This document shows, piece after piece, positions 1,732 to 24,650 of a DNA stretch of 29,736 nucleotides (position 1 is its first letter; each line of letters opens with the position of its first letter). A program made the translations under genes and the position numbers. The notes beneath the pieces were generated by a model. The model searched no databases. It was not told the origin of the DNA and was given only the letters and a program-made list of their open reading frames with translations. This DNA is from Candidatus Hydrogenedentota bacterium (GTDB taxonomy: Bacteria > Hydrogenedentota > Hydrogenedentia > Hydrogenedentales > JACPGD01). Where the stretch lies: contig JACPGD010000517.1 in the NCBI GenBank assembly GCA_016182645.1, forward strand, positions 1 to 29,736, given 5' to 3'.

Positions 1732-2322
1732 ATGAGACCGATGGGAAAGAAGGTAATTCGGAGTCTGTCCCGGATTTGCCCCTTGCTTGTGGGTTTCTCA
1801 CTGGCAGTAGGCGTCTTCTTCGCAGGTCACCATTTTTCGAGGGTTGGGTTGCCGAGGGTGGCATCAGAGATTCGCTTCGCTGATGGAACTGTCGCGCTTC
1901 TGACAACCACATTTAGCGGCACGCTCGAGCCTTTTATCGTATCTTTCTACGTGCAAGAGCCTGGAATGGCTTGGGTTTGGTACTACATTGACCATCAGGC
2001 CTTTTTAGGTTTCGCAAAGGCGTCTTTAGAGTCTACCGGGGACATCATTAGCATATCTGTTGACGGTGTTTCGCGGGCAAGATACGATGTCAGGAAGAGG
2101 GAACTTTACCGTGATGGAAAGCTTCGCAAACCTCTCATCTTGACCGATGGTTCTCCCTTTGAGCCGTATTCCCAACAAATGGTTGCACGCTCTGTGGAAA
2201 GTCGGGAGAATGACGCAGAGGCATCTGCTTTCTGCTTACTTCCGCGCAAGTACGGGCCCTCCCAAGAAGTCCAGGATCAAAATGGGAAACTAGGGACGCT
2301 ACCCATATTTCGGGGAAACTAG
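1732..2322 (+). CDS. hypothetical membrane-anchored protein (196 aa, N-terminal hydrophobic segment)
   Basis: ATG at 1732. The N-terminus ICPLLVGFSLAVGVFFAG is hydrophobic. Third-position GC is visibly lower than in surrounding genes. The stop TAG (2320-2322) lies inside a 30-bp tandem duplication. The ATG overlaps the stop of an upstream small ORF as ATGA. Confidence 0.55.
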   Translation: MRPMGKKVIRSLSRICPLLVGFSLAVGVFFAGHHFSRVGLPRVASEIRFADGTVALLTTTFSGTLEPFIVSFYVQEPGMAWVWYYIDHQAFLGFAKASLESTGDIISISVDGVSRARYDVRKRELYRDGKLRKPLILTDGSPFEPYSQQMVARSVESRENDAEASAFCLLPRKYGPSQEVQDQNGKLGTLPIFRGN

Positions 2323-2353
2323 GGGGAAACTAGGGACGCTACCCATATTTCGG
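2284..2353. repeat. tandem duplication of 30 bp (GGGAAACTAGGGACGCTACCCATATTTCGG) separated by an 11-bp partial unit
   Basis: Copy 1 is at 2284-2313 and copy 2 at 2325-2353. The unit GGAAACTAGG occurs 3 times. The duplication contains the stop codon and last 9 codons of the 1732-2322 CDS. Confidence 0.9.
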
Positions 2354-2417
2354 AAAGATGAAGCCCCAAATTGAACTCTGCTGTGGCCCGGTCCCCTTGA
2401 CCGTGCCACTCCCCCGA

Positions 2418-2610
2418 CCGTCAGGTCTCCTCCTCTTCTTGCCGCCGCCCCTTCCCCCTCTGCCATGGGCGCAGGGTGAGCGGAGAAGGCCGCCATGGTC
2501 ACCGGGCCGGTCCCACCAACCACCGCGTTGGTATCGAACTGCAGGGTGAGCAAAGAAGGCTGCCATGGTCACCGGAACGTGGCCCCAACCACCGCGTTGG
2601 TTTCGAACTC
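2418..2610. repeat. 18-nt motif CCGTCAGGTCTCCTCCTC (2418-2435) followed by a 70-bp unit repeated in tandem twice (2471-2540, 2541-2610; ~88% identity)
   Basis: Direct comparison of the two units (GCAGGGTGAGC..GCCATGGTCACCGG..CCAACCACCGCGTTGGT.TCGAACT). The 18-mer recurs exactly on the opposite strand at 7599-7616. Confidence 0.85.
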
Positions 2611-2750
2611 GGAGCCGGCGATCCGATCTCAAAAAACGCTAGAATTATTGGATATTTCCTGAATTATCTCTATTGTCCACTGAGTACCCCTTGTTTCGCA
2701 AAACCACTCCCCGCCCCGCTCCCGCCCTTTTCACACCTTCCGCATTCTCT

Positions 2751-2778
2751 TGGAGTCTGGAGTCTGGAGTCTGGAGTC
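2751..2778. repeat. heptanucleotide tandem repeat TGGAGTC x4
   Basis: Direct reading of the sequence. It is intergenic, 45 nt downstream of the 3' end of the minus-strand operon. Confidence 0.9.
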
Positions 2779-2823
2779 CGATGAGAACTTGCCATGGCCA
2801 GCACATTCCTTTCCTGTTGTTTC

Positions 2824-4266
2824 CTACTGCTTCATTCCTAATTGCTCCGGTTTGATGGGTGGGGAATAGCTGGGCATGCTGGCGTTGGGGGCGAGGACGT
2901 AGACGCGCGCATCGCCCAGCAGCGCGATGCAGGTGCGGCCCTTCCCCGCTAGGTCTTCGGTGAAGAGCACCTCCCGGAGCGGGGCATCGAACCGGAACTT
3001 GGCCGTGGGGGTATCGTCGAAGCCCTGCTCGCCATAGAGCCACACGGCGTATTCCTCCGCGGTGCGGCTACAGCCAAAATCGGTCCGCGTGTCCCCGTTG
3101 AAGTCGGCGAATACCAGGTGTTTCAAGGGGGCTTCGGAAGGCATCTCGAGGTACCACGACAAGGGCGCCTGGAGTGAAAGCGTGCTCGCGGCGCGCGGGT
3201 CGAAGCGCTCCTTTTCCGGCACGTACAAGTGCACGCGCAACAGGAGCGGCCAGGCGCCGCTGACCGCCGCGCGCGTCAAGGCGTTCACGGTGATGCTGGC
3301 TTCCGCCGGCGACCAGAGCAAGAGATCCGCATAACTGTCTCCATTGAAATCCGGCTGCCGCAATTGCCGCGTCACCAGCATGCCCGGGTACCGCCGGGCC
3401 GGGCCGGCGCGGAATTCCTGGGCGCCGGCATCACCCGTGGCCTGGGGCGCGCGAATCCGCACGAGCAGATCGCTGAACGCCGCATCGGCCGCGGCGTAGA
3501 GGGCACGTTCCTGGAGCAGGGCTTCTTCGCGCAAGGGAAACCAGGGCCAGGCCTCCGGCGGCATGGCGGCGGCCTCCACCATTTGGCGCGGCGTACCCAT
3601 GCGTCGTGCCACGCCTTCCGCCTCGAGCGGCTGGAGTTCCCCGGGCAACTCCGGCGCATTGGCCACCACGCTGTTGACCCGCATCTCCAACGATCCCGGT
3701 GGTCCGATCTGCGGCGGGTTCGAGGCCCGGCTGCTGAATGGTTCGCCATAGCGCGGCTGCTTCACGGCCGTGGCGGCGAGGGGGAAGTTATCGAGCAAAT
3801 CCCCGGCAGCGCTGCGCAGTTCGAGGGCCGTGTCCGTGGGCAGCGCCAGCGCGGGAACGTCCACGCGCGGCACCACCAGCACATGCAGAAACGGCTGGGT
3901 GGCCGCATTGGCGAACTGCGTGTGCAGGGAAAAAAGATCCGTGCCGTCCGGCGAGGAAGGGGTCGGCAGTCCATAGCGCACCAGGGCATCGCCCGCCACG
4001 CTGACGATCTCGCTGCGCCCGTCCCCGTTCAGATCCGCTATGTCCACCGCCGTCGTACCCGGGCGCAGATTCACCTCATAGGAGGAGTCGGGCCTGGAAT
4101 CCTGAAAGACTGTCAGGCGGAGTCCATCCAAGACGAACAATTCCGCGGGCCCCGCCGGTTCCACCTTCGCGGTGAAAAAGCGGGCTTCCGCACTGGGTAG
4201 GGGAAACTCCAACCGATCAAAGGCGTCCGCGGACAGCAACGCCAGGATGAGTGGCAGCAGCGTCAT
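2824..4266 (-). CDS. secreted FG-GAP/VCBS-like calcium-binding repeat protein (480 aa), fourth gene of the operon
   Basis: Internal ATG at 4266 gives a signal peptide MTLLPLILALLSADA. The longer ORF-track N-terminus is Arg-rich overlap junk. There are three D-x-N-G-D-x-x-x-D-[LIV] motifs (ADLNGDGRSEIVSV, PDFNGDSYADLLLW, ADFNGDTRTDFG). The start overlaps the upstream stop as ATGA (4263-4266). Confidence 0.75.
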   Translation of the reverse strand: MTLLPLILALLSADAFDRLEFPLPSAEARFFTAKVEPAGPAELFVLDGLRLTVFQDSRPDSSYEVNLRPGTTAVDIADLNGDGRSEIVSVAGDALVRYGLPTPSSPDGTDLFSLHTQFANAATQPFLHVLVVPRVDVPALALPTDTALELRSAAGDLLDNFPLAATAVKQPRYGEPFSSRASNPPQIGPPGSLEMRVNSVVANAPELPGELQPLEAEGVARRMGTPRQMVEAAAMPPEAWPWFPLREEALLQERALYAAADAAFSDLLVRIRAPQATGDAGAQEFRAGPARRYPGMLVTRQLRQPDFNGDSYADLLLWSPAEASITVNALTRAAVSGAWPLLLRVHLYVPEKERFDPRAASTLSLQAPLSWYLEMPSEAPLKHLVFADFNGDTRTDFGCSRTAEEYAVWLYGEQGFDDTPTAKFRFDAPLREVLFTEDLAGKGRTCIALLGDARVYVLAPNASMPSYSPPIKPEQLGMKQ

Positions 4267-5741
4267 GACGCCTCCTCCCGCGAGAAGTAGACCAGCGAAC
4301 CGGGCGTCTGTGCCTGCTGGGCCTGTTTGGGCTGGACCAGGAGATCGCCGCGGCCATCGTGGTTGATGTCGTACACCCGGATGTCCGCCGGCCCCGGCAC
4401 GCTCCAGGTCGTTTCGAGGGCGCCGCCCAGACGGCCTGGCGCACTCAGAAACAGCCGCACGCGTTCCGGCTCCTCTCGGACCACGACGTCTTTCCAGCCA
4501 TCGCCATTGAAGTCGCCGGTGAAATTGATCAATTCGCCCAGTTGATAGCGTTGAAACATAGGCCCGTTGAGATAGGGCGCCGCATCCAGATTGATGCGCA
4601 CCTGGCCTTCCACGGCGGGCGCCTTGGAGAACCCCCCGCTCTCTTGAGCATAAACACGCAGGACATGATCGAGCACGGAGCGGGTGAGTAGTTGCGCGAT
4701 CATCTCGCGCGGCCCGCCCTGGAACAGCGTGGCTGATTCCGAGACCAAGTCCTTGTCGCCGTCCCCGTCCACGTCCAGGAAGGAACAATGCGGGCGTAAG
4801 CGCTGGAAGGAAGGTTCGCGCACCACTTTGAACGTGGCGCCGCCATCGAGCGTGGCCCATGTTTCGTAGACCGGGAGCGGATACGCGGAGGCTTTGGATT
4901 CCTGCCACACGCCGCCGGCATAGTCGATCACATCGTCATTGTTCAAACGGCAGGGACGCAGGAAGGCTGGCATGGACGGCGTCGCCTGGGTCGAGCTCGC
5001 CGCGGGGTCCAGTTCCCAGGCCTGGCCGGCCGCCACGCTGTAGTCCGTTCGGACGTAGCCCCGGCTGGAGGCCGTTTCCAGGTCCTGGCTGAGGACGCTG
5101 ATCCGATTCGCTTGAAGGAAGAACCTGGCGGACATCTCCCGGGCCGGAAAGAGGAGACGGCGTCTGGGTGCCGGCCAGAGTTGCTGTTGTTCCTCTTGCA
5201 CCAAATCCAGCGGGGGCAGAATGCGCCAGACGGCACGTTCCGCATAAACTTCGCTCTCCTGGTTACGAGAGAAAACATGAATGCCCGCGGGATCGACGGC
5301 GATCAGTTCGGGGTCGCCGTTGCCATCGACGTCGTGGAGATACCGCTGCAAGCGCCGCTTTTCTTCCGAGAGGTCCGGCGGTTGAGCCGGCCAGGACAGG
5401 GGTTGGCCCACGACCGTTTCCCAGCCTCCCTGCGTCCATCGATAGATAGCCAGACTATTCTGGCTTCTCAGGTAGAGCGCACCCCTCCAGACATCAATGT
5501 CGGCGGGAGCGTCCGGTTGCGGCAGTGGCACGCGCCGTTCCGGGGGGAATCCGCCCGCCTCCTGGAACAGAACCATGCCGGCGAGCACCAGATCGTCGGC
5601 GCCATCTCGGTCGAGGTCGGCCTGGACAAAATTCGTGGCGGCTTCCGCGGTGAGGGGATCGACCACGCCGACGTAAACGGCGGGGATTTCCTGGGACGTG
5701 AAGCGCAGGGCGGCCAGACAAAGCAGGGGCAAGCACATCAT
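4263..5741 (-). CDS. secreted FG-GAP repeat (integrin-alpha-like beta-propeller) protein, 492 aa, third gene of the operon
   Basis: Start MMCLPLLCLAAL... (ATG at 5741) overlaps the permease stop as ATGA. Five spaced Ca-binding-type repeats are present (DLDRDGADDLVLAG, DVDGNGDPELIAVD, DVDGDGDKDLVSE, DFNGDGWKDVVV, DINHDGRGDLLV). Confidence 0.75.
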   Translation of the reverse strand: MMCLPLLCLAALRFTSQEIPAVYVGVVDPLTAEAATNFVQADLDRDGADDLVLAGMVLFQEAGGFPPERRVPLPQPDAPADIDVWRGALYLRSQNSLAIYRWTQGGWETVVGQPLSWPAQPPDLSEEKRRLQRYLHDVDGNGDPELIAVDPAGIHVFSRNQESEVYAERAVWRILPPLDLVQEEQQQLWPAPRRRLLFPAREMSARFFLQANRISVLSQDLETASSRGYVRTDYSVAAGQAWELDPAASSTQATPSMPAFLRPCRLNNDDVIDYAGGVWQESKASAYPLPVYETWATLDGGATFKVVREPSFQRLRPHCSFLDVDGDGDKDLVSESATLFQGGPREMIAQLLTRSVLDHVLRVYAQESGGFSKAPAVEGQVRINLDAAPYLNGPMFQRYQLGELINFTGDFNGDGWKDVVVREEPERVRLFLSAPGRLGGALETTWSVPGPADIRVYDINHDGRGDLLVQPKQAQQAQTPGSLVYFSREEAS

Positions 5742-6529
5742 GCGGAGAGGTTTCGGCGCTGAAGCGCAACAATGGCCAAGGCGGTACAGACGGCCATGAC
5801 GGCAAAGGAGGTGCCGAGGACATACCACACGCCGGGGAACCAATCCAGGGCAATGGCCTCACTGCGGCTGCTGAATACGGCCCAGGGCTTCTCGAGGTAC
5901 GTGGAAAAGACGAAGCGCTCGATGCCCAGGGGATATTTGACCAGGTCAATCAGAATCCATCCTCCGACCGCGCCGGAAGCCGCCGTCATGGGGCTCCTGA
6001 AGAAGGAGGAGAACATGAGCGCCAGCGCGACGCCCGCCCATTGCGGGGCCAGGCTCAACAGCAGTCCCAGGAGGTAGGCATTGCTCATCTCTTCCCGCGT
6101 GAAGAGCAATTCGCCGCCATAGGTAACGCCCATGAGTTCGCCGAGGAGCCACGCCAGCAGCCAACTACTCGCGCCAACTATCAAGGTCAACAGCAGGGCA
6201 TAGGTCATGCCATTGAGTAGTTTGGCCAGGACAAACTCGTGCCTGCGCACGGGCCGGATCAGGACTTGCCGGATCGTGCCGGACGCAAGTTCGGTGGACA
6301 CCAACCCCGCCGAATAAATCAGCAGCAGCAAGAACCCGAGGAAATTCAGGGCCACCGGCGTAATATAAGCGATGAAGCCGTAGTCGCTGACCTCGTCTTT
6401 GCTGATGGGGTAGAGGAGCGGGGCGCAGACGACCGCGATCAGGACAAGGACCGGCCCCATGGCCGAGTATTTGTAGTGGATCACCTTGTACATCTCGAAG
6501 AGATAGGCTTGAACAATGCGCCTGGTCAT
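5738..6529 (-). CDS. ABC-2 family transporter permease (263 aa, ~6 TM helices)
   Basis: Start MTRRIVQAYLFEMYKV at 6529 overlaps the ATPase stop as ATGA. It shows the multi-TM hydrophobic profile typical of ABC-2 (NosY/GldF-like) permeases. Confidence 0.8.
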   Translation of the reverse strand: MTRRIVQAYLFEMYKVIHYKYSAMGPVLVLIAVVCAPLLYPISKDEVSDYGFIAYITPVALNFLGFLLLLIYSAGLVSTELASGTIRQVLIRPVRRHEFVLAKLLNGMTYALLLTLIVGASSWLLAWLLGELMGVTYGGELLFTREEMSNAYLLGLLLSLAPQWAGVALALMFSSFFRSPMTAASGAVGGWILIDLVKYPLGIERFVFSTYLEKPWAVFSSRSEAIALDWFPGVWYVLGTSFAVMAVCTALAIVALQRRNLSA

Positions 6530-7446
6530 GAGGCCGCCCCTTTTTCGCTCTGGTTCATGACTTTCAGAAAATAGTCTTGAAGCGTTCGCCGGCGCGGCAT
6601 GATGGCCGAGACCTTGTATCCCCCCGTGACCAGGAATGCGGCCAGTTGGTGTACGTTTTCCTCGCGAAGGCGCACTTGAAGGCGCCCAGGTTTCGCCTCC
6701 ACCTTTTCCACCCAACTCTGCTCCGACAGGCGCTTGGCCGCGCCCTCACTGCCGTCGATCAGGACTTCGACCGAGGTCTGATCATAAGAGAGCAGCGCGT
6801 CCGTCCGTTCGCAGGCCACCAACTCGCCTTTATTCAGGATGGCCACGCGATCGCAGAGACTTTCTACTTCGTGCATCTGGTGGCTTGAGAAGACAATGGT
6901 CACCCGGGCGTCCTTGGCCAGGTACCGGAGCAATTGCAGGATGTCCTGGACCCCTTCCAAGTCCAGTCCGGCGGTCGGTTCGTCGAGCAAGAGCAACTCA
7001 GGCTCGGTCAACATGGCGTGGGCCAGTCCCAGGCGCTGGCGCATCCCTTGAGATAGTGCCCCCGCGCGGGCATTGCCCGCATGCAGCAGTCCCACCAAGT
7101 CCAGCAAGCGGTCCACATTGACATCATGCCCGGCCAGCCGCGCAAACAGCTTCAAGTTGCGGCGCACGCTCAAATAATCGTAAAAGACGGGCCGCTCCAC
7201 CAGCACGCCCATCCGGCGCGCAATAGACACGAAATTCCGCTGCAATTCCCGCCCGAATACGTTGATCTTTCCCTCGTCCGGCCGGACCAGCCCCGCCAGC
7301 ATGTAGAGCGTGGTGCTCTTTCCCGCGCCATTCGGCCCGAGCAGACCCAACACCTCGCCTTCCTCCACTTTCAGCGTCAAGTTCTTGACCGCAACCGTGG
7401 AACCATAGTGTTTCGTCAGGTTGTTTAGGGAAATACAGGTGGGCAT
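6526..7446 (-). CDS. ABC transporter ATP-binding protein (306 aa) with C-terminal extension
   Basis: Walker A GPNGAGKST, ABC signature LSQGMRQRL and Walker B LLLLDEP are all present. ATG at 7446 (MPTCISLNNLTKHYG). The longer ORF-track N-terminus only translates the heptamer repeats. Confidence 0.9.
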   Translation of the reverse strand: MPTCISLNNLTKHYGSTVAVKNLTLKVEEGEVLGLLGPNGAGKSTTLYMLAGLVRPDEGKINVFGRELQRNFVSIARRMGVLVERPVFYDYLSVRRNLKLFARLAGHDVNVDRLLDLVGLLHAGNARAGALSQGMRQRLGLAHAMLTEPELLLLDEPTAGLDLEGVQDILQLLRYLAKDARVTIVFSSHQMHEVESLCDRVAILNKGELVACERTDALLSYDQTSVEVLIDGSEGAAKRLSEQSWVEKVEAKPGRLQVRLREENVHQLAAFLVTGGYKVSAIMPRRRTLQDYFLKVMNQSEKGAAS

Positions 7447-7471
7447 GCGAAAATGGTAGCACGACGGGAGG

Positions 7472-7534
7472 GGGATTGGGAATTGGGAATTAGGAATTAG
7501 GAATGGGGAATGGGGAATGGGGAATGGGGAATGG
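7472..7534. repeat. heptanucleotide repeat array, 9 units (minus-strand sense: CCATTCC x5, TAATTCC x2, CAATTCC, CAATCCC)
   Basis: Direct reading of the sequence. It lies 26-90 nt upstream of the ABC ATPase start codon. The unit is related to the CAATCCG/CAATTCC array at 904-945. Confidence 0.9.
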
Positions 7535-7545
7535 GGGAGGAGGGA

Positions 7546-7616
7546 GGAGACCTGCGGTCGGGGCCGTGGCGCGGTCAGGAGACCACGCCATAGCGGGGGA
7601 GGAGGAGACCTGACGG
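7546..7616 (-). repeat. two direct copies of the motif CCG(T)CAGGTCTCCTCC.C..CCCCC plus a third GGAGACC core; degenerate copy of the 2418-2610 element
   Basis: The reverse complement of 7599-7616 equals 2418-2435 exactly (18/18). Downstream similarity continues (CCCCCGCTATGGCG vs CCCCCTCTGCCATGGGCG). A second copy is at 7546-7566. Confidence 0.7.
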
Positions 7617-7670
7617 AGAGCACGTATTTCCGTGTTTTTGTGCTTCGTCTCCCTTGAGCGCCAATAATGC

Positions 7671-7699
7671 TTGCTGATTGTGTTTCCGTGCGCTACAAT
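7671..7699 (+). promoter_or_regulatory. putative sigma-70-type promoter for the giant surface-protein gene (-35 TTGCTG, 17-nt spacer, -10 TACAAT)
   Basis: Hexamers read directly from the sequence in an AT-richer divergent intergenic region, about 110 nt upstream of the ATG at 7812. No experimental support. Confidence 0.3.
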
Positions 7700-7811
7700 G
7701 CGGAAGGTATGTACAGCATGCCAGCACGATGTCTGTAGTAGGTTTTCTGTATCGAATTTCTGAAACACGTGGCGGCCTGCAGGACGCTACGTATAGCGCA
7801 GGGGACGACCA

Positions 7812-10800
7812 ATGCAGCGCTTAGGGGTTTTCGCTTGGGCGGCGGGTGTAACGGGCGCCGTCATTGCCACCGTGGTGGTGGCCGCCGCGGTGTTCCAGCA
7901 AGAGGCGCTGCCGGCGCCGGATCGGCTGGACGGGGCTGGGGCACCATCGGAGACAGCGGTCCCAACGCCCGGGACGAAACCACTGCCGGCTGCGCTCCAG
8001 CGTAAGCTGAAGAAAGGCCCAAAACCCCACGATCAGCCGGCCGAAGCGCAGGAATTCTATGTGCAGCAACGTATGGGCGGCGCGGGGCCGCTGGACTATG
8101 CCTTGCTCGAGGCGGCCGCCGCGGAGGCGGAGAAACTGCCGTCGGCCAATGTATTCGCCGAGAAGGCCGCCGGGGACATTAGCGGTTGGGAGGAACTGGG
8201 TCCCGGCAACATTGGGGGACGTACGCGAAGCCTGCTGCTTGACCCCTTGAATCCGGACATTATGTACGCCGGCGGTGTGGCGGGCGGCGTCTGGAAATCC
8301 ACGGATGGCGGCGGCAACTGGGACCCGCTCAATGATTTGATGGACAACCTCGCCGTGACGACGCTGGCGTTTGAGCAGCAAGGGTCGCCCACCACCAATA
8401 CCGACGTGATATACGCGGGTACGGGCGAGGGCTATTTCAACGGCGATGCGGTGCAAGGCGCGGGGATCTTCAAGAGCAGCAACTCTGGCGCTACCTGGAC
8501 GAGGCTGGCCAGCACCAATAATGCAGACTTCTTTTTTGTGAACAAACTGGTGGCCAGCCCCAATAATCCGCAGGTACTGTACGCGGCGACGGCCACGGGC
8601 ATCTGGCGTACCAACAATGGGGGCCAAACCTGGACACCGGTCCTCCGCAATAATGGGGCGGGCGGAACGAGCGGCTCCGCGGTAAGGACTTTCGTTGGCT
8701 TCACCGACATCGAGATTCGTACCGACCTGACCACGGACACGTTGTTCGCAAGCAATGGAAGTTTCATCGCTCCGCCCAACTTCCCGGCGGACGGCATCTA
8801 TCGCTCTTTGGATGGCGGGGACTCCTGGTCTCGTGTTTTCACCCGGGCGGACATGGGCCGATCCGATCTGGCCATAGCACCGAGCAATCAAAATGTCATT
8901 TATGCCTTGACGGCGGACGCTCAAAATGGTGAGCGGTTGCTGAACGTGTTTCGGAGCATGGATGGCGGCACGACGTGGGCGCCGCGGATTTCAGGCACCT
9001 TTAACCGGCATAACGCGGACTGGCTGTTGCTCACGAATCCGCTCATTGCCAATCTGGGCCCGTGCTTCGGCGATTTCGACGGGGAATTCAACCAGGGCTG
9101 GTATGACAACATTATCGCCGTTGCGCCCCACAATCCCGACATCGTGTTTGCGGGCGGTATCGACCTGTTTCGGTCCGACAATGGCGGCGCCAACTGGGGC
9201 ATCATCAGCTACTGGTATGAGCCGATTGCCGGGACCGCCTTCGCGCACGCGGACCATCACGCACTCGTATTTCATCCGGCGTGGAATGGCGCCTCGAATC
9301 AGGTCCTTTTTAATGGCAGTGACGGTGGTGTCTATCGAACGAATAATGCGCTGGCCGCCGTGGCGTCCGGCGCCAATGATGGGGTGTGCAGCGATTCGAC
9401 AGAGGTGGTGTGGAACAGCTTGAACAACAGTTATGGCGTGACGCAGTTCTACCACGGACGGCCTTACCCAGCGCCCACGGAACGGTACTTTGGGGGTACG
9501 CAGGACAACGGCACGCTGCGCGGCGCGGACAATACGGGATTGAATGGCTGGAACGAAATCAACGGCGGTGACGGCGGCTATGTCAGCTTCCACCCGGGCA
9601 ACCCGAACATCCTCTTCGCCGAGAACACCGGCGCCAGTATGCAGCGTTCGGTGAATGGCGGCTCAACTTTTGATGATATTGTGTCGGGGGCGGGGCAAAT
9701 CAATTTTGATATCGACCCTGGCTTCATGTTCATCACTCCATTCCGCCATGACCCGAGCAATCCCGACCGGATCTGGTATGGCGGCTGGTTTGCCTGGCGC
9801 TCGAACAATGCCGCGAGCGCCTCCTCGGCAACCGCCGTGCGCTGGACCCAGGCCAGTGCAGTGACCCCCGGCGATGGGAGCATCTCGGCCTGGGGCATCG
9901 ATCCCAACAACAGTAACAAGGTCTACGTGGGTCTTTCAGACGGTGTTGTTGCGCGGACCACCAATGCCACAACATCCACCAGCGCCACCAACTGGGCGGA
10001 CATTACGCCACCCTTCACCGGGTTCGCCTACATCAGTTGGATCGAGGTGGATGGCAACGACACGACCGGCGGAACGGTGTATGTGACCAACTCGGTGTTC
10101 GGCTCCCAGCACGTTCTTAAGTCAAGCAACGGGGGCAATGCCTGGACGGACATCACCGGGAACCTGCCGGACATTCCCGTCCACTGCCTTGTCGTGCAAC
10201 CGGGGGCGGCAAGCAATTTGTTCATCGGGACCGACCTTGGCGTTTTTGTGTCGAAGATTGGCGGGGGGAATTGGACCCGCATGAACTCAAATGGTTTTGC
10301 GAACGTCGTGGTCGAGTCGCTCGAATTTCAGGACGCCGAAACCCTCTATGCCTTTACGCATGGGCGCGGGGCTTTCCGGGCGGCGGTACAGCCACCGGCC
10401 GGCGGCGAGGGTGAAGGGGAAGGCGAAGGCGAAGGCGAGGGAGAAGGCGAAGGTGAGGGGGAAGGGGAAGGCGAAGGGGAAACGGTGATCGTCGATGTGC
10501 TGACTGATGTGGCCGATGGCGACACGTCGTCGGTCCAGGCACTGGGTCTGAATCGCGGTCCCGATGGTAAGATCTCGCTGCGCGAAGCCCTCCTGGCCAC
10601 GAACAACACCGGTGGCCCGAATGTCATCACCTTCTCTGTCAATGGCGCTATCCGGCCGTCGACGCCCTTGCCGTTCCTCAGCGACCAGAGCGGCGGCACC
10701 CAAATTCAGGGGGGCAATACGATTACGCTTAATGGGATCTTGGCGCCCGCGGCCACGGACGGTCTCGTGCTGAGTTCGGGCGCTAACGCCGTCATTGGCT

Positions 10801-23381: not shown

Positions 23382-24650
23382 TCAGACCTTGGCCCATTCG
23401 GCGCCGGCCGAGGCGCCCGAAGAATACAGCCGGCCTTCGATACCTGTGGCTAACTGATAGTCCTCCATCAGCCGTATTGAAAACTGCTTGATATGTTCGG
23501 TTTGCACCAGGTGCACCGCGCACCCGCCGAAGCCGGCGCCGGTCATGCGGCTGCCGTAACAGCCCGGCAACAAGCGGGCAATAGCCGTCATCGCGTCCAA
23601 CTCGGGACTGGTCACCTCGTAGTCTTCGCGCAGGCTGTGGTCGGAGGCATTCATCAGGGCGCCGAAGCCGGGCGCGTCGCCGTCGCGCAGCCGGGCGCAC
23701 GCTTCGAGCGTACGGCCGTTTTCGGAAATCACATGCCGCGCACGCCGAAACGCGACGGTGTCGAGTCGGTCGCGCGCCTCTTCCAACGCGGCCAGCGAAA
23801 AGTCGCGCAGGTGCGTACCCTTGTTGTGATCAGTCTCCCCATTGTGGCCGGTCTCCCTGTTGTGGCCGGTCTCCTGACCGCGCCACGGCGCCGACTGTGG
23901 GTCTCCTCCTCCACCGCGCTTTCCCAGCATCTCGCACAGCCCCGCCACGGCGCGTTCGCACTCCGCCACGCGCTCGTTGTATTTCGATCCGGACAGCCGC
24001 CGCGCGCAGCACGTGTCCGTGATGACCAACGCTGCGTCCGCGAAATTGATGGCCACATGCTCCAGCGCCAGCGACCGGCAATCGAGGAACAGCGCGTGCC
24101 CGGCCCGGCAGCAGCGGGAGGCAAATTGGTCCATGATGCCGCTGCTGATACCGAGGAACTCGTTTTCCACGCGCTGGCCCAAGCGGGCCGCTTCCCCGTC
24201 ATCGAGTGTGAATCCGTATAATCCCTCAAAAAGCTTGAGCACGGCCATTTCCACCGCCGCCGAACTGCTCAGCCCCGCGCCCACGGGCACATCGCCGGTG
24301 ATATACAGATCGGCGCCCTGCGGCAGCCTGTACCCGCCCTGGGTCAATTGCTGGGCGACGCCCGCAATATAGTCCATCCACGGATGTGCCGCCTCGCGCG
24401 TCAAGCCATCCAGGGGAAGATCGGCGCCGTCATTGAACTGCTCCGCGAAAGCGCGCACGCGGTTGTCCGTCCGCGCCTGTCCCGCAATCATTACTTCCAG
24501 ATCCAGTGCCATTGGCAAGACAAAGCCGTGGTTGTAATCGGTATGCTCGCCAATCAGGTTAACGCGTCCCGGCGCCCGTGCCACGATGCTGGCGGGGCCC
24601 CCAAACCGCCGGGCAAACCCGGCCCGGACTGTTTCGAGAGCGATACTCAT
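23382..24650 (-). CDS. galK: galactokinase
   Basis: N-terminal signature PGRVNLIGEHTDYNHGFVLP, the GHMP kinase ATP motif (PVGAGLSSSAA) and the C-terminal GAGFGGC motif. 422 aa including a ~25-aa low-complexity insertion. Confidence 0.92.
   Translation of the reverse strand: MSIALETVRAGFARRFGGPASIVARAPGRVNLIGEHTDYNHGFVLPMALDLEVMIAGQARTDNRVRAFAEQFNDGADLPLDGLTREAAHPWMDYIAGVAQQLTQGGYRLPQGADLYITGDVPVGAGLSSSAAVEMAVLKLFEGLYGFTLDDGEAARLGQRVENEFLGISSGIMDQFASRCCRAGHALFLDCRSLALEHVAINFADAALVITDTCCARRLSGSKYNERVAECERAVAGLCEMLGKRGGGGDPQSAPWRGQETGHNRETGHNGETDHNKGTHLRDFSLAALEEARDRLDTVAFRRARHVISENGRTLEACARLRDGDAPGFGALMNASDHSLREDYEVTSPELDAMTAIARLLPGCYGSRMTGAGFGGCAVHLVQTEHIKQFSIRLMEDYQLATGIEGRLYSSGASAGAEWAKV
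23820..23886 (-). repeat. in-frame 18-bp tandem repeat x3 inside galK encoding ETGHNR-ETGHNG-ETDHNK
   Basis: Plus-strand units GTCTCCCCATTGTGGCCG / GTCTCCCTGTTGTGGCCG / GTCTCC... The insertion follows a Gly-rich stretch (GKRGGGGDPQSAPWRGQ) not expected in canonical GalK. Confidence 0.7.

Follow-up and report, generated by a model that had tools for sequence, protein, structure and literature searches.

The question raised by this locus is why a short sequence should stand in inverted copies on the two sides of an operon. The stretch analysed here (the whole of contig JACPGD010000517.1 of assembly GCA_016182645.1, from a Candidatus Hydrogenedentota bacterium; 29,736 nucleotides (nt), hereafter the window) carries the 18-mer CCGTCAGGTCTCCTCCTC at 2418-2435 on the plus strand and again, exactly, at 7599-7616 on the minus strand, as a preliminary description had reported, with a minus-strand operon encoding an ABC ATPase, an ABC-2 permease and two FG-GAP/VCBS proteins between the copies. 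The window holds no further match to the 18-mer at three or fewer mismatches, and two matches occurred in none of 100 dinucleotide-preserving shuffles. That description had left several readings side by side, namely a MITE- or REP-like pair marking a mobilised cassette, operators of one regulator, or cis-acting RNA elements. Our analyses lead us to conclude, with considerable confidence, that the repeats are copies of a repetitive extragenic palindrome (REP) family belonging to a system of REPs and a REP-associated tyrosine transposase (RAYT). REPs are ordinary bacterial repeats, selfish or domesticated, that are spread by a RAYT transposase.

The 18-mer was correctly read but the extent of the repeat was underestimated: the whole unit spans about 50 nt and has two modules, of which the 18-mer is just the 3' one. 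In its short form the unit is G[T/C]TGTGGCGYGGTC-TCCT-GACCGCGCCAC, N5, CGACCGNAGGTCTCC, and the full form of the consensus is G[T/C]TGTGGC[GY/C]GGTC-TCCT-GACCGCGCCAC, N5, CGACCG[A/C]AGGTCTCC. The first module, hairpin 1, consists of an 11-base-pair (bp) stem and a 4-nt loop, with the feet GTGG...CCAC and a conserved apex GGTC-TCCN-GACC; behind it lies the conserved 3' module (module 2), which carries a 4-bp mini-hairpin. A covariance model of the unit (R1), built from 29 units of other genomes and excluding the window copies, recovered three full-length units in the window and no more, with 65.9, 60.8 and 49.9 bits; behind them the score drops to 12.6 bits for the best remaining match. The window copies and their parts are the following.

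2380-2430, plus strand: left REP unit, with module 2 and tail running to 2435 (R1 49.9 bits, E 3.3e-11; DNA fold z -4.56); degenerate hairpin 1 GTGGCCCGGTC-CCCTT-GACCGTGCCAC, tcccc spacer, module 2 CGACCGTCAGGTCTCC, TCCTC tail
7546-7594, minus strand: right REP unit (R1 65.9 bits, E 2.6e-15; fold z -3.36); GCTATGGCGTGGTC-TCCT-GACCGCGCCAC, ggccc, CGACCGCAGGTCTCC
7599-7616, minus strand: solo module 2 with tail, CCGTCAGGTCTCCTCCTC, adjoining the right full unit and having no hairpin 1 of its own
23859-23906, plus strand: galactokinase REP unit (R1 60.8 bits)

The left 18-mer is therefore the 3' end of the left full unit. The three GGAGACC cores reported at the right end are present (7546-7552, 7578-7584 and 7604-7610), and the sequence at 7546-7566 that had been described as a second partial copy is there as well, although it belongs to a full unit. 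The third full unit, inside the galactokinase coding sequence (CDS), had been missed; the repeat finder pairs 7527-7584 with 23868-23925 over 58 nt at 81% identity. The adjacent sequence that had been considered related (CCCCCTCTGCCATGGGCG versus CCCCCGCTATGGCG) turned out to be no true extension, since its right-hand side is the start of the next unit's hairpin, and the likeness among the three window copies ends at the unit borders. All three copies fold as single-stranded DNA into the predicted hairpin (z from -2.4 to -4.6), and their orientations are plus (left), minus (right) and plus (galactokinase). The left unit and the right solo module carry a GTCA loop variant of module 2 that is private to the window, the loop types among about 70 sampled copies being GAA in 40 and GCA in 12, and GTCA occurring in none of them. 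Because both carry this private variant, we regard the left unit and the right solo module as sister copies.

The hairpin, a short GC-rich imperfect palindrome as in the REP class, is also reflected in the way its sequence varies. In 81 model matches from 39 sources, aligned by fitting to the model, 96.5% of the paired cells were complementary over all 15 pairs of the unit and 95.9% in hairpin 1, and compensatory changes were found in six of the 11 hairpin-1 pairs, a number equalled by none of 500 shuffles. In slid controls the paired fraction dropped to 23-43%.

When the core 19-mer GGTCTCCTGACCGCGCCAC, which is common to two of the window copies, was searched for in one genome per species, at least 112 stretches proved to contain it, spread over at least 45 assemblies and at least seven phyla, against a chance expectation that we calculate at about 4 stretches (596 Gb x 2 strands / 4^19). 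The sequence flanking the 19-mer is conserved as well. Among the matches listed were five Hydrogenedentota metagenome-assembled genomes (MAGs), and many Chloroflexota, of which a single MAG supplied 37 loci, together with Planctomycetota, Verrucomicrobiota, Syntrophobacteraceae, Nitrospiraceae and Terriglobia, and the loci sampled per assembly in these other genomes numbered from 9 to at least 37. Viral contigs yielded no match to the 18-mer or to the core. Inverted doublets resembling REPINs were present in other genomes (loci L016, L027, L028, L065, L070 and L024, and also L115), and tandem repetition of units or of parts of them was seen with periods of 18 nt in the galactokinase gene, 24 nt in L113, 45 nt in L102 and 51 nt in L077. 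In L113 the stretch 2384-2480, beside the RAYT gene described below, holds module 2 four times with the 24-nt period, while whole 51-nt units stand three times in L077 (6592-6742) and 45-nt units three times in L102 (6308-6420). Tandem amplification of this kind suggests replication slippage or repeated action of the RAYT at one site. In the Chloroflexota MAG Go_Eff_bin_125 (L004-L110) the hairpin occupies the apex of a palindrome of about 90 nt that has AT-rich arms of its own (…taacttagcgatttGCTGTGGCC…CCACccaacttatttttagacg…), the core hairpin being reused there within a lineage-specific element similar to a MITE, a miniature transposable element with inverted repeats.

Evidence for the REP/RAYT reading also comes from the gene that accompanies these units. 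Clustering of the open reading frames (ORFs) around the 112 listed loci revealed neither a recurrent neighbour gene nor a recurrent DDE transposase. A search for HUH...Y motifs around the listed loci identified a single RAYT of 181 amino acids (aa) in a Hydrogenedentales MAG (L012:7443-7988), whose ORF lies 38 nt from a REP unit. This protein matches the NCBIfam family NF047646 'REP-associated tyrosine transposase' with 93.8 bits (cutoff 80; E 8.5e-27), and its best match in the PDB is 4ER8, the E. coli TnpA-REP (E 3.5e-6); Pfam gave no match. Homologues of the protein number 1080, many being called RayT in their source records, with identities of 59-70% in Pirellulales, Gemmataceae, Symmachiella and Terriglobia, and the motifs PTH[ML]H (HUH), WQ and Y-x-H-x-N-P are invariant in 10 RAYT homologues. 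Four homologue loci were fetched by protein identity and not by the repeat, the RAYT gene lying at 2501-3046 on the plus strand (end at 3049 in L117), and the REP units around it are these.

L113: upstream unit 2335-2383, plus strand; downstream unit 3050-3098, minus strand
L116: upstream unit 2306-2355, plus strand; downstream unit 3065-3114, minus strand
L117: upstream unit 2412-2460, plus strand; downstream unit 3076-3124, minus strand
L115: upstream doublet 2178-2226, plus strand, and 2283-2331, minus strand; downstream doublet 3137-3185, plus strand, and 3255-3303, minus strand

In L012 one flank has a unit in the same pattern, the other flank lying beyond the stored locus. Units hence stand beside the RAYT gene at all five loci, and on both sides of it at four, mostly as an inverted pair, while the best R1 match in 45 kb of control loci had an E of 0.16. 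The arms of the hairpins next to the RAYT genes differ (GTGGCGCGGTC/GACCGCGCCAC, GTGGCATGGTC/GACCATGCCAC, CTGGCATGGTC/GACCATGCCAG and GTGCGCGGGTC/GACCCCGCAC), with stem swaps such as GCG/CGC to CAT/ATG and G..C to C..G, and the GTT foot, the GGTC-TCCN-GACC apex and module 2 are constant across these copies. A RAYT flanked by REP units is the REPtron arrangement, which defines REP/RAYT systems (PMC6006769, PMC3116915) and which we find in genomes other than the source. The REP half of the earlier proposal is accordingly the one that the data support: the unit is a GC-rich imperfect palindrome, dispersed, mostly intergenic, and it flanks RAYT genes in other genomes.

Placing these results into a mechanism, a single-copy HUH/Y1 enzyme, the RAYT, encoded elsewhere in the genome would bind the hairpin in single-stranded DNA and cut and rejoin beside it, which would generate new copies and tandem duplications of parts of the unit in intergenic DNA, with an occasional copy entering a protein's tolerant loop without a change of frame. 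The three units of the window would be copies spread in this way. Module 2, which repeats the apex sequence GGTCTCC, may serve as the RAYT's cleavage or target partner, and this conserved module could be a mimic of the enzyme's cleavage or target site. The binding, cleavage and rejoining steps are modelled on the biochemistry of E. coli TnpA-REP (4ER8), IS200/IS605 and IS608, and the source genome presumably encodes a RAYT.

The unit in the galactokinase gene (galK) illustrates how such a copy may be tolerated within a protein. The CDS occupies 23382-24650 on the minus strand and encodes 422 aa with the Pfam domains GalKase_gal_bdg, GHMP_kinases_N and GHMP_kinases_C. The insertion that it carries is the following.

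23823-23918, plus strand: in-frame insertion of 96 nt (32 aa) in galK, encoding RGGGGDPQSAPWRGQETGHNRETGHNGETDHN

These 32 residues, which lie between the GHMP N- and C-terminal domains, are missing in all 11 aligned homologues (385-405 aa, about 388). The insertion is composed of about 2.3 tandem 18-nt units of the 5' half followed by the full unit at 23859-23906, and Tandem Repeats Finder reports a period of 18 at 23833-23874. Because the catalytic motifs are intact, galK is probably still functional, and because the consensus unit is open in five of its six reading frames, in-frame REP insertions can survive. Read from the sequence, the insertion site has no clear target-site duplication, only a 3-nt CTT ambiguity.

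This last point bears on the possibility that the copies are classical MITEs, mobilised by a DDE transposase and possessing terminal inverted repeats and target-site duplications. The copies are indeed short, non-coding and dispersed, and in Go_Eff_bin_125 the hairpin centres a longer palindrome. The window copies, however, have no terminal inverted repeats beyond the hairpin, the CTT ambiguity in galK is no clear target-site duplication, the gene that regularly accompanies the unit encodes a RAYT of the Y1/HUH type and not a DDE enzyme, and the ORF clusters contained no recurrent DDE transposase. We consider a classical MITE extremely unlikely. Assignment to a curated Rfam RNA family was likewise tried and set aside, there being no Rfam match.

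Whether the units have any bearing on the operon that they bracket requires taking into account its gene content and its relatives in other genomes. The operon, which lies outside the repeat element and also includes the ABC-2 permease gene, is laid out as follows.

2824-7446, minus strand: four-gene operon (Pfam)
6526-7446, minus strand: ABC ATPase
2824-5843, minus strand: two FG-GAP/VCBS proteins

The right unit lies in the divergent intergenic region between the start of the ABC ATPase gene at 7446 (minus strand) and that of a 1540-aa gene at 7812 (plus strand), probably within the ABC operon's leader or promoter. Such a position, together with the stability of the hairpin and the reported effects of REPs on termination, mRNA stability and translation (PMC6006769), would suit a regulatory role, in which the GGAGACC repeats are operators of one regulator or parts of a leader RNA whose CCUCC sequesters the Shine-Dalgarno sequence. 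The same unit, however, is found within galK and neighbours unrelated genes in at least 45 assemblies; around RAYT genes it stands in both orientations, three homologous operons lack it, and the left copy lies 394 nt past the stop codon of the operon. No sigma-70-like promoter was matched in 7380-7830, and Rfam gave no match in the window at the gathering score and nothing relevant at E<=1 in relaxed searches of 2250-2850 and 7400-7830. An operon-specific operator is ruled out because units occur in galK and beside unrelated genes in seven phyla, contrary to what had been suggested, and the proposal of a dedicated cis-acting RNA finds no support either, there being no Rfam family and the units occurring in both orientations and inside a gene. 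A regulatory origin of the repeats therefore appears unlikely. The hairpin of the right unit could have side effects on the transcript, and nothing points to a dedicated role.

A different role for the pair would be that of the ends of a composite, giant REPIN-like element that moves the 5.2-kb ABC/FG-GAP operon as a cassette. The two units do face each other, plus to minus, as they do around RAYT genes and in REPIN doublets, and the left unit and the right solo module have their private 18-nt variant in common. The order of the four genes is kept in three other genomes (L127, L128 and L129; FG-GAP protein 41-42% identical), and their neighbours all differ from those of the window, as a moving operon would lead one to expect, two of the three having common upstream neighbours. 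These operons of distant relatives have no REP unit within 7 kb (R1 on 45 kb, best E 0.16), so the operon exists without the units; a metagenome scan for relatives of the FG-GAP protein gave distant repeat-level matches only. Further points against the cassette are the end of similarity at the unit borders, without long terminal repeats, and the G+C content, which shows no change at the unit positions or borders. Neither a split doublet nor a pair of cassette ends fits the arrangement, because the solo module with the common variant is located outside the right full unit and lacks a hairpin. Moreover, given three units within 29.7 kb, one would expect neighbours to be inverted relative to each other half the time. 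REP/RAYT systems are not known to move cargo of kilobase size. We hence hold the cassette to be very unlikely. The positions of the units on both sides of the operon look incidental: as copies of a REP family they bracket it because REPs accumulate in intergenic regions, and not to define or regulate the operon.

Several observations weigh against the REP/RAYT reading. The tblastn search found no RAYT gene in the 29.7-kb window, so that the link between the source organism and a RAYT would come from other Hydrogenedentota MAGs, and the mobility of the family is argued from related systems. The covariation was counted on an alignment fitted to the model, and its figures lean towards structure for that reason. 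The window contains no inverted doublet of the REPIN type or of the bacterial interspersed mosaic element (BIME) type with a short spacer, the nearest inverted pair being 5.1 kb apart, and the two 18-mers with the private GTCA are closer to each other than chance membership of one family needs. The unpaired GTAG that canonically serves as the 5' guide tetranucleotide is missing from the foot of the hairpin: a conserved GTT or GCT is followed by GTGG, which is paired with CCAC, and this opening of the stem is ATGG in the right copy and CTGG or GTGC in some of the copies flanking RAYT genes. For the source genome, the copies counted are the three of this 29.7-kb contig, two intergenic and one intragenic.

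Other repeats accompany the units in the window. The heptamer array that had been reported at the right end (GGGGAAT x9.6, 7470-7536) and the tandem of two 70-nt blocks at the left end (2471-2610; 91-96% identical) are both present. The former belongs to a longer feature.

7470-7545, minus strand: tail rich in pyrimidines and a heptamer array that reads (ATTCCCC)n on the unit strand, directly 3' of the right unit

A pyrimidine-rich tail follows the unit in several Hydrogenedentales copies (L001, L012, L098 and L081; in L001 it is tccccattccctc), and the (ATTCCCC)n array is possibly a slippage expansion of such a C/T-rich tail. Tandem arrays of heptanucleotides fill intergenic regions of the window (CAATCCG at 904-942, TGGAGTC at 2751-2778 and GGGGAAT at 7470-7536) and are common in all the REP-bearing genomes sampled (L007, L015, L061, L092 and others). 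We counted 48 period-7 arrays with at least three copies in about 0.9 Mb, one of them having 36 copies, and they were not significantly nearer to the units than expected: six of the 48 stood at 200 nt or less from a unit, a distance that takes in 7.3% of the sequence. Period-7 arrays recall the short tandemly repeated repetitive (STRR) sequences of cyanobacteria. Neither the window nor about 1 Mb of related loci contains a further copy of the tandem of 70-nt blocks, whose fold shows no extra stability (z +0.74) and which is not a REP unit (R1 5.8 bits).

The sequence to the left of the left unit has peculiarities of its own. Directly beside that unit, the G+C of 1200-2600 is 0.53-0.57 and thus lower than the approximately 0.60-0.69 that most of the sequence around it has, and neither Pfam nor NCBIfam has a family for its ORFs. 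The 30-mer GGGAAACTAGGGACGCTACCCATATTTCGG stands in two direct copies at 2284-2354, with a partial copy between them, at the end of ORF 1732-2322, for which no family was matched. Further left, within 824-1173, lies an orphan fragment of sigma-70 region 4 (plus strand, about 1000-1173; Pfam Sigma70_r4_2 24.8 bits, cut-off 25.7). Regions 2 and 3 do not precede it; in their place are 150 nt of tandemly arrayed repeats (CAATCCG, a 16-mer and 9-mers; 835-986), and the fragment looks like a truncated gene for an extracytoplasmic function (ECF) sigma factor. No tRNA was found in the window. In the Chloroflexota MAGs of L029 (2744-4589) and L015 a reverse-transcriptase-like ORF stands together with a small ORF resembling a four-helix bundle, in L029 no more than a few hundred bases away from a REP unit; to judge by their sequences, these pairs look like diversity-generating retroelements.

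For the window itself the finding is ordinary, and some interest attaches to the family from its conservation across phyla. Copies of the REP unit account for three oddities, the two intergenic repeats and the unannotated insertion of 32 residues in galactokinase, and they remove a false lead, since the inverted repeats define neither a mobile cassette nor a regulon. For annotation it matters that such units give rise to small ORFs that are spurious and to seeming insertions in the proteins of MAGs, with peptides such as GDRPQ, WRGQET and RRPATT. The REP core (19-mer, GTT foot and module 2) and the RAYT (59-70% identity) are common to Hydrogenedentota, Planctomycetota, Chloroflexota, Verrucomicrobiota, Acidobacteriota, Nitrospirota and Desulfobacterota. 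The REP/RAYT pair may, as we tentatively suggest at somewhat less than even chances, be a lineage that spreads horizontally across phyla, which if true would counter the usual view of species-specific REPs and of vertically inherited REPIN-RAYT systems. That inverted units should in addition carry kilobase cargo such as the ABC/FG-GAP operon is far less likely than such a spread. Being compact, easily modelled and conserved across many uncultured phyla, with a well-conserved RAYT of 181 aa, the family suits the questions of how RAYTs recognise REPs and whether REP/RAYT pairs move between phyla.

We found no description of this family in the literature, whether searching for the repeat strings or for REPs together with these phyla, and its sequence is absent from the supplements of two REP surveys (PMC6006769, PMC3733652). 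Comparison with the REP/BIME and REPIN-RAYT systems of E. coli (4ER8) and Pseudomonas fluorescens nevertheless shows extensive agreement: there as here the unit forms an imperfect, GC-rich hairpin of about 26 nt and is scattered, for the most part between genes, the units are single, in inverted doublets or in clusters, and the RAYT is flanked by units, mostly inverted, and has the HUH, WQ and Y..NP motifs. The family differs from those systems in the absence of the unpaired 5' GTAG, GTGG/CCAC being the base of the stem, and in the additional conserved 3' module CGACCGNAGGTCTCC, which repeats the apex GGTCTCC.

Opitutus terrae and Rickettsia provide known cases of REPs inserted in frame within genes (Di Nocera et al. 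2013, PMC3733652), in which, as in galK, 20-30 or more residues are added and the frame is kept. The sequences of those elements are unrelated, however, the peptides of Opitutus terrae and R. baltica do not match, and RPE-1 of the Rickettsia palindromic elements represents longer palindromic insertions. The class 3 TnpA-Y1 of Planctomycetes and Acidobacteria with their 'CnGA-foot' REPs (PMC6006769) overlap with our family in host phyla and reach a high copy number in some genomes, and module 2 opens with CCGA or GCGA, which, read from the sequence, would fit CnGA followed by a small hairpin. The RAYT associated here, in contrast, has the Y..NP and WQ of class 2 type and not YV..EQ and W[TA].

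Another parallel is offered by subclass 2.4 of TnpA-Y1 and its 'double-foot' REPs (Quentin et al. 2018, PMC6006769), which have a 5' GT[AG]G and its complement C[TC]AC at the hairpin ends, resembled here by the GTGG...CCAC stem ends, and which likewise occur in various phyla and are tolerated as in-frame insertions in genes. In that subclass the HUH motif is NH[IFV]H and the Y motif YIxNNP, whereas the RAYT here has THMH and Y[LI]HxNP; the likeness is one of sequence features, and the REP sequence is absent from the supplementary tables of that survey. REPs are usually described as species-specific (PMC6006769), whereas the core studied here is common to at least seven phyla with RAYTs 59-70% identical across them. 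This cross-phylum conservation of sequence is the unusual feature of the REP family, which is otherwise a known kind of element.

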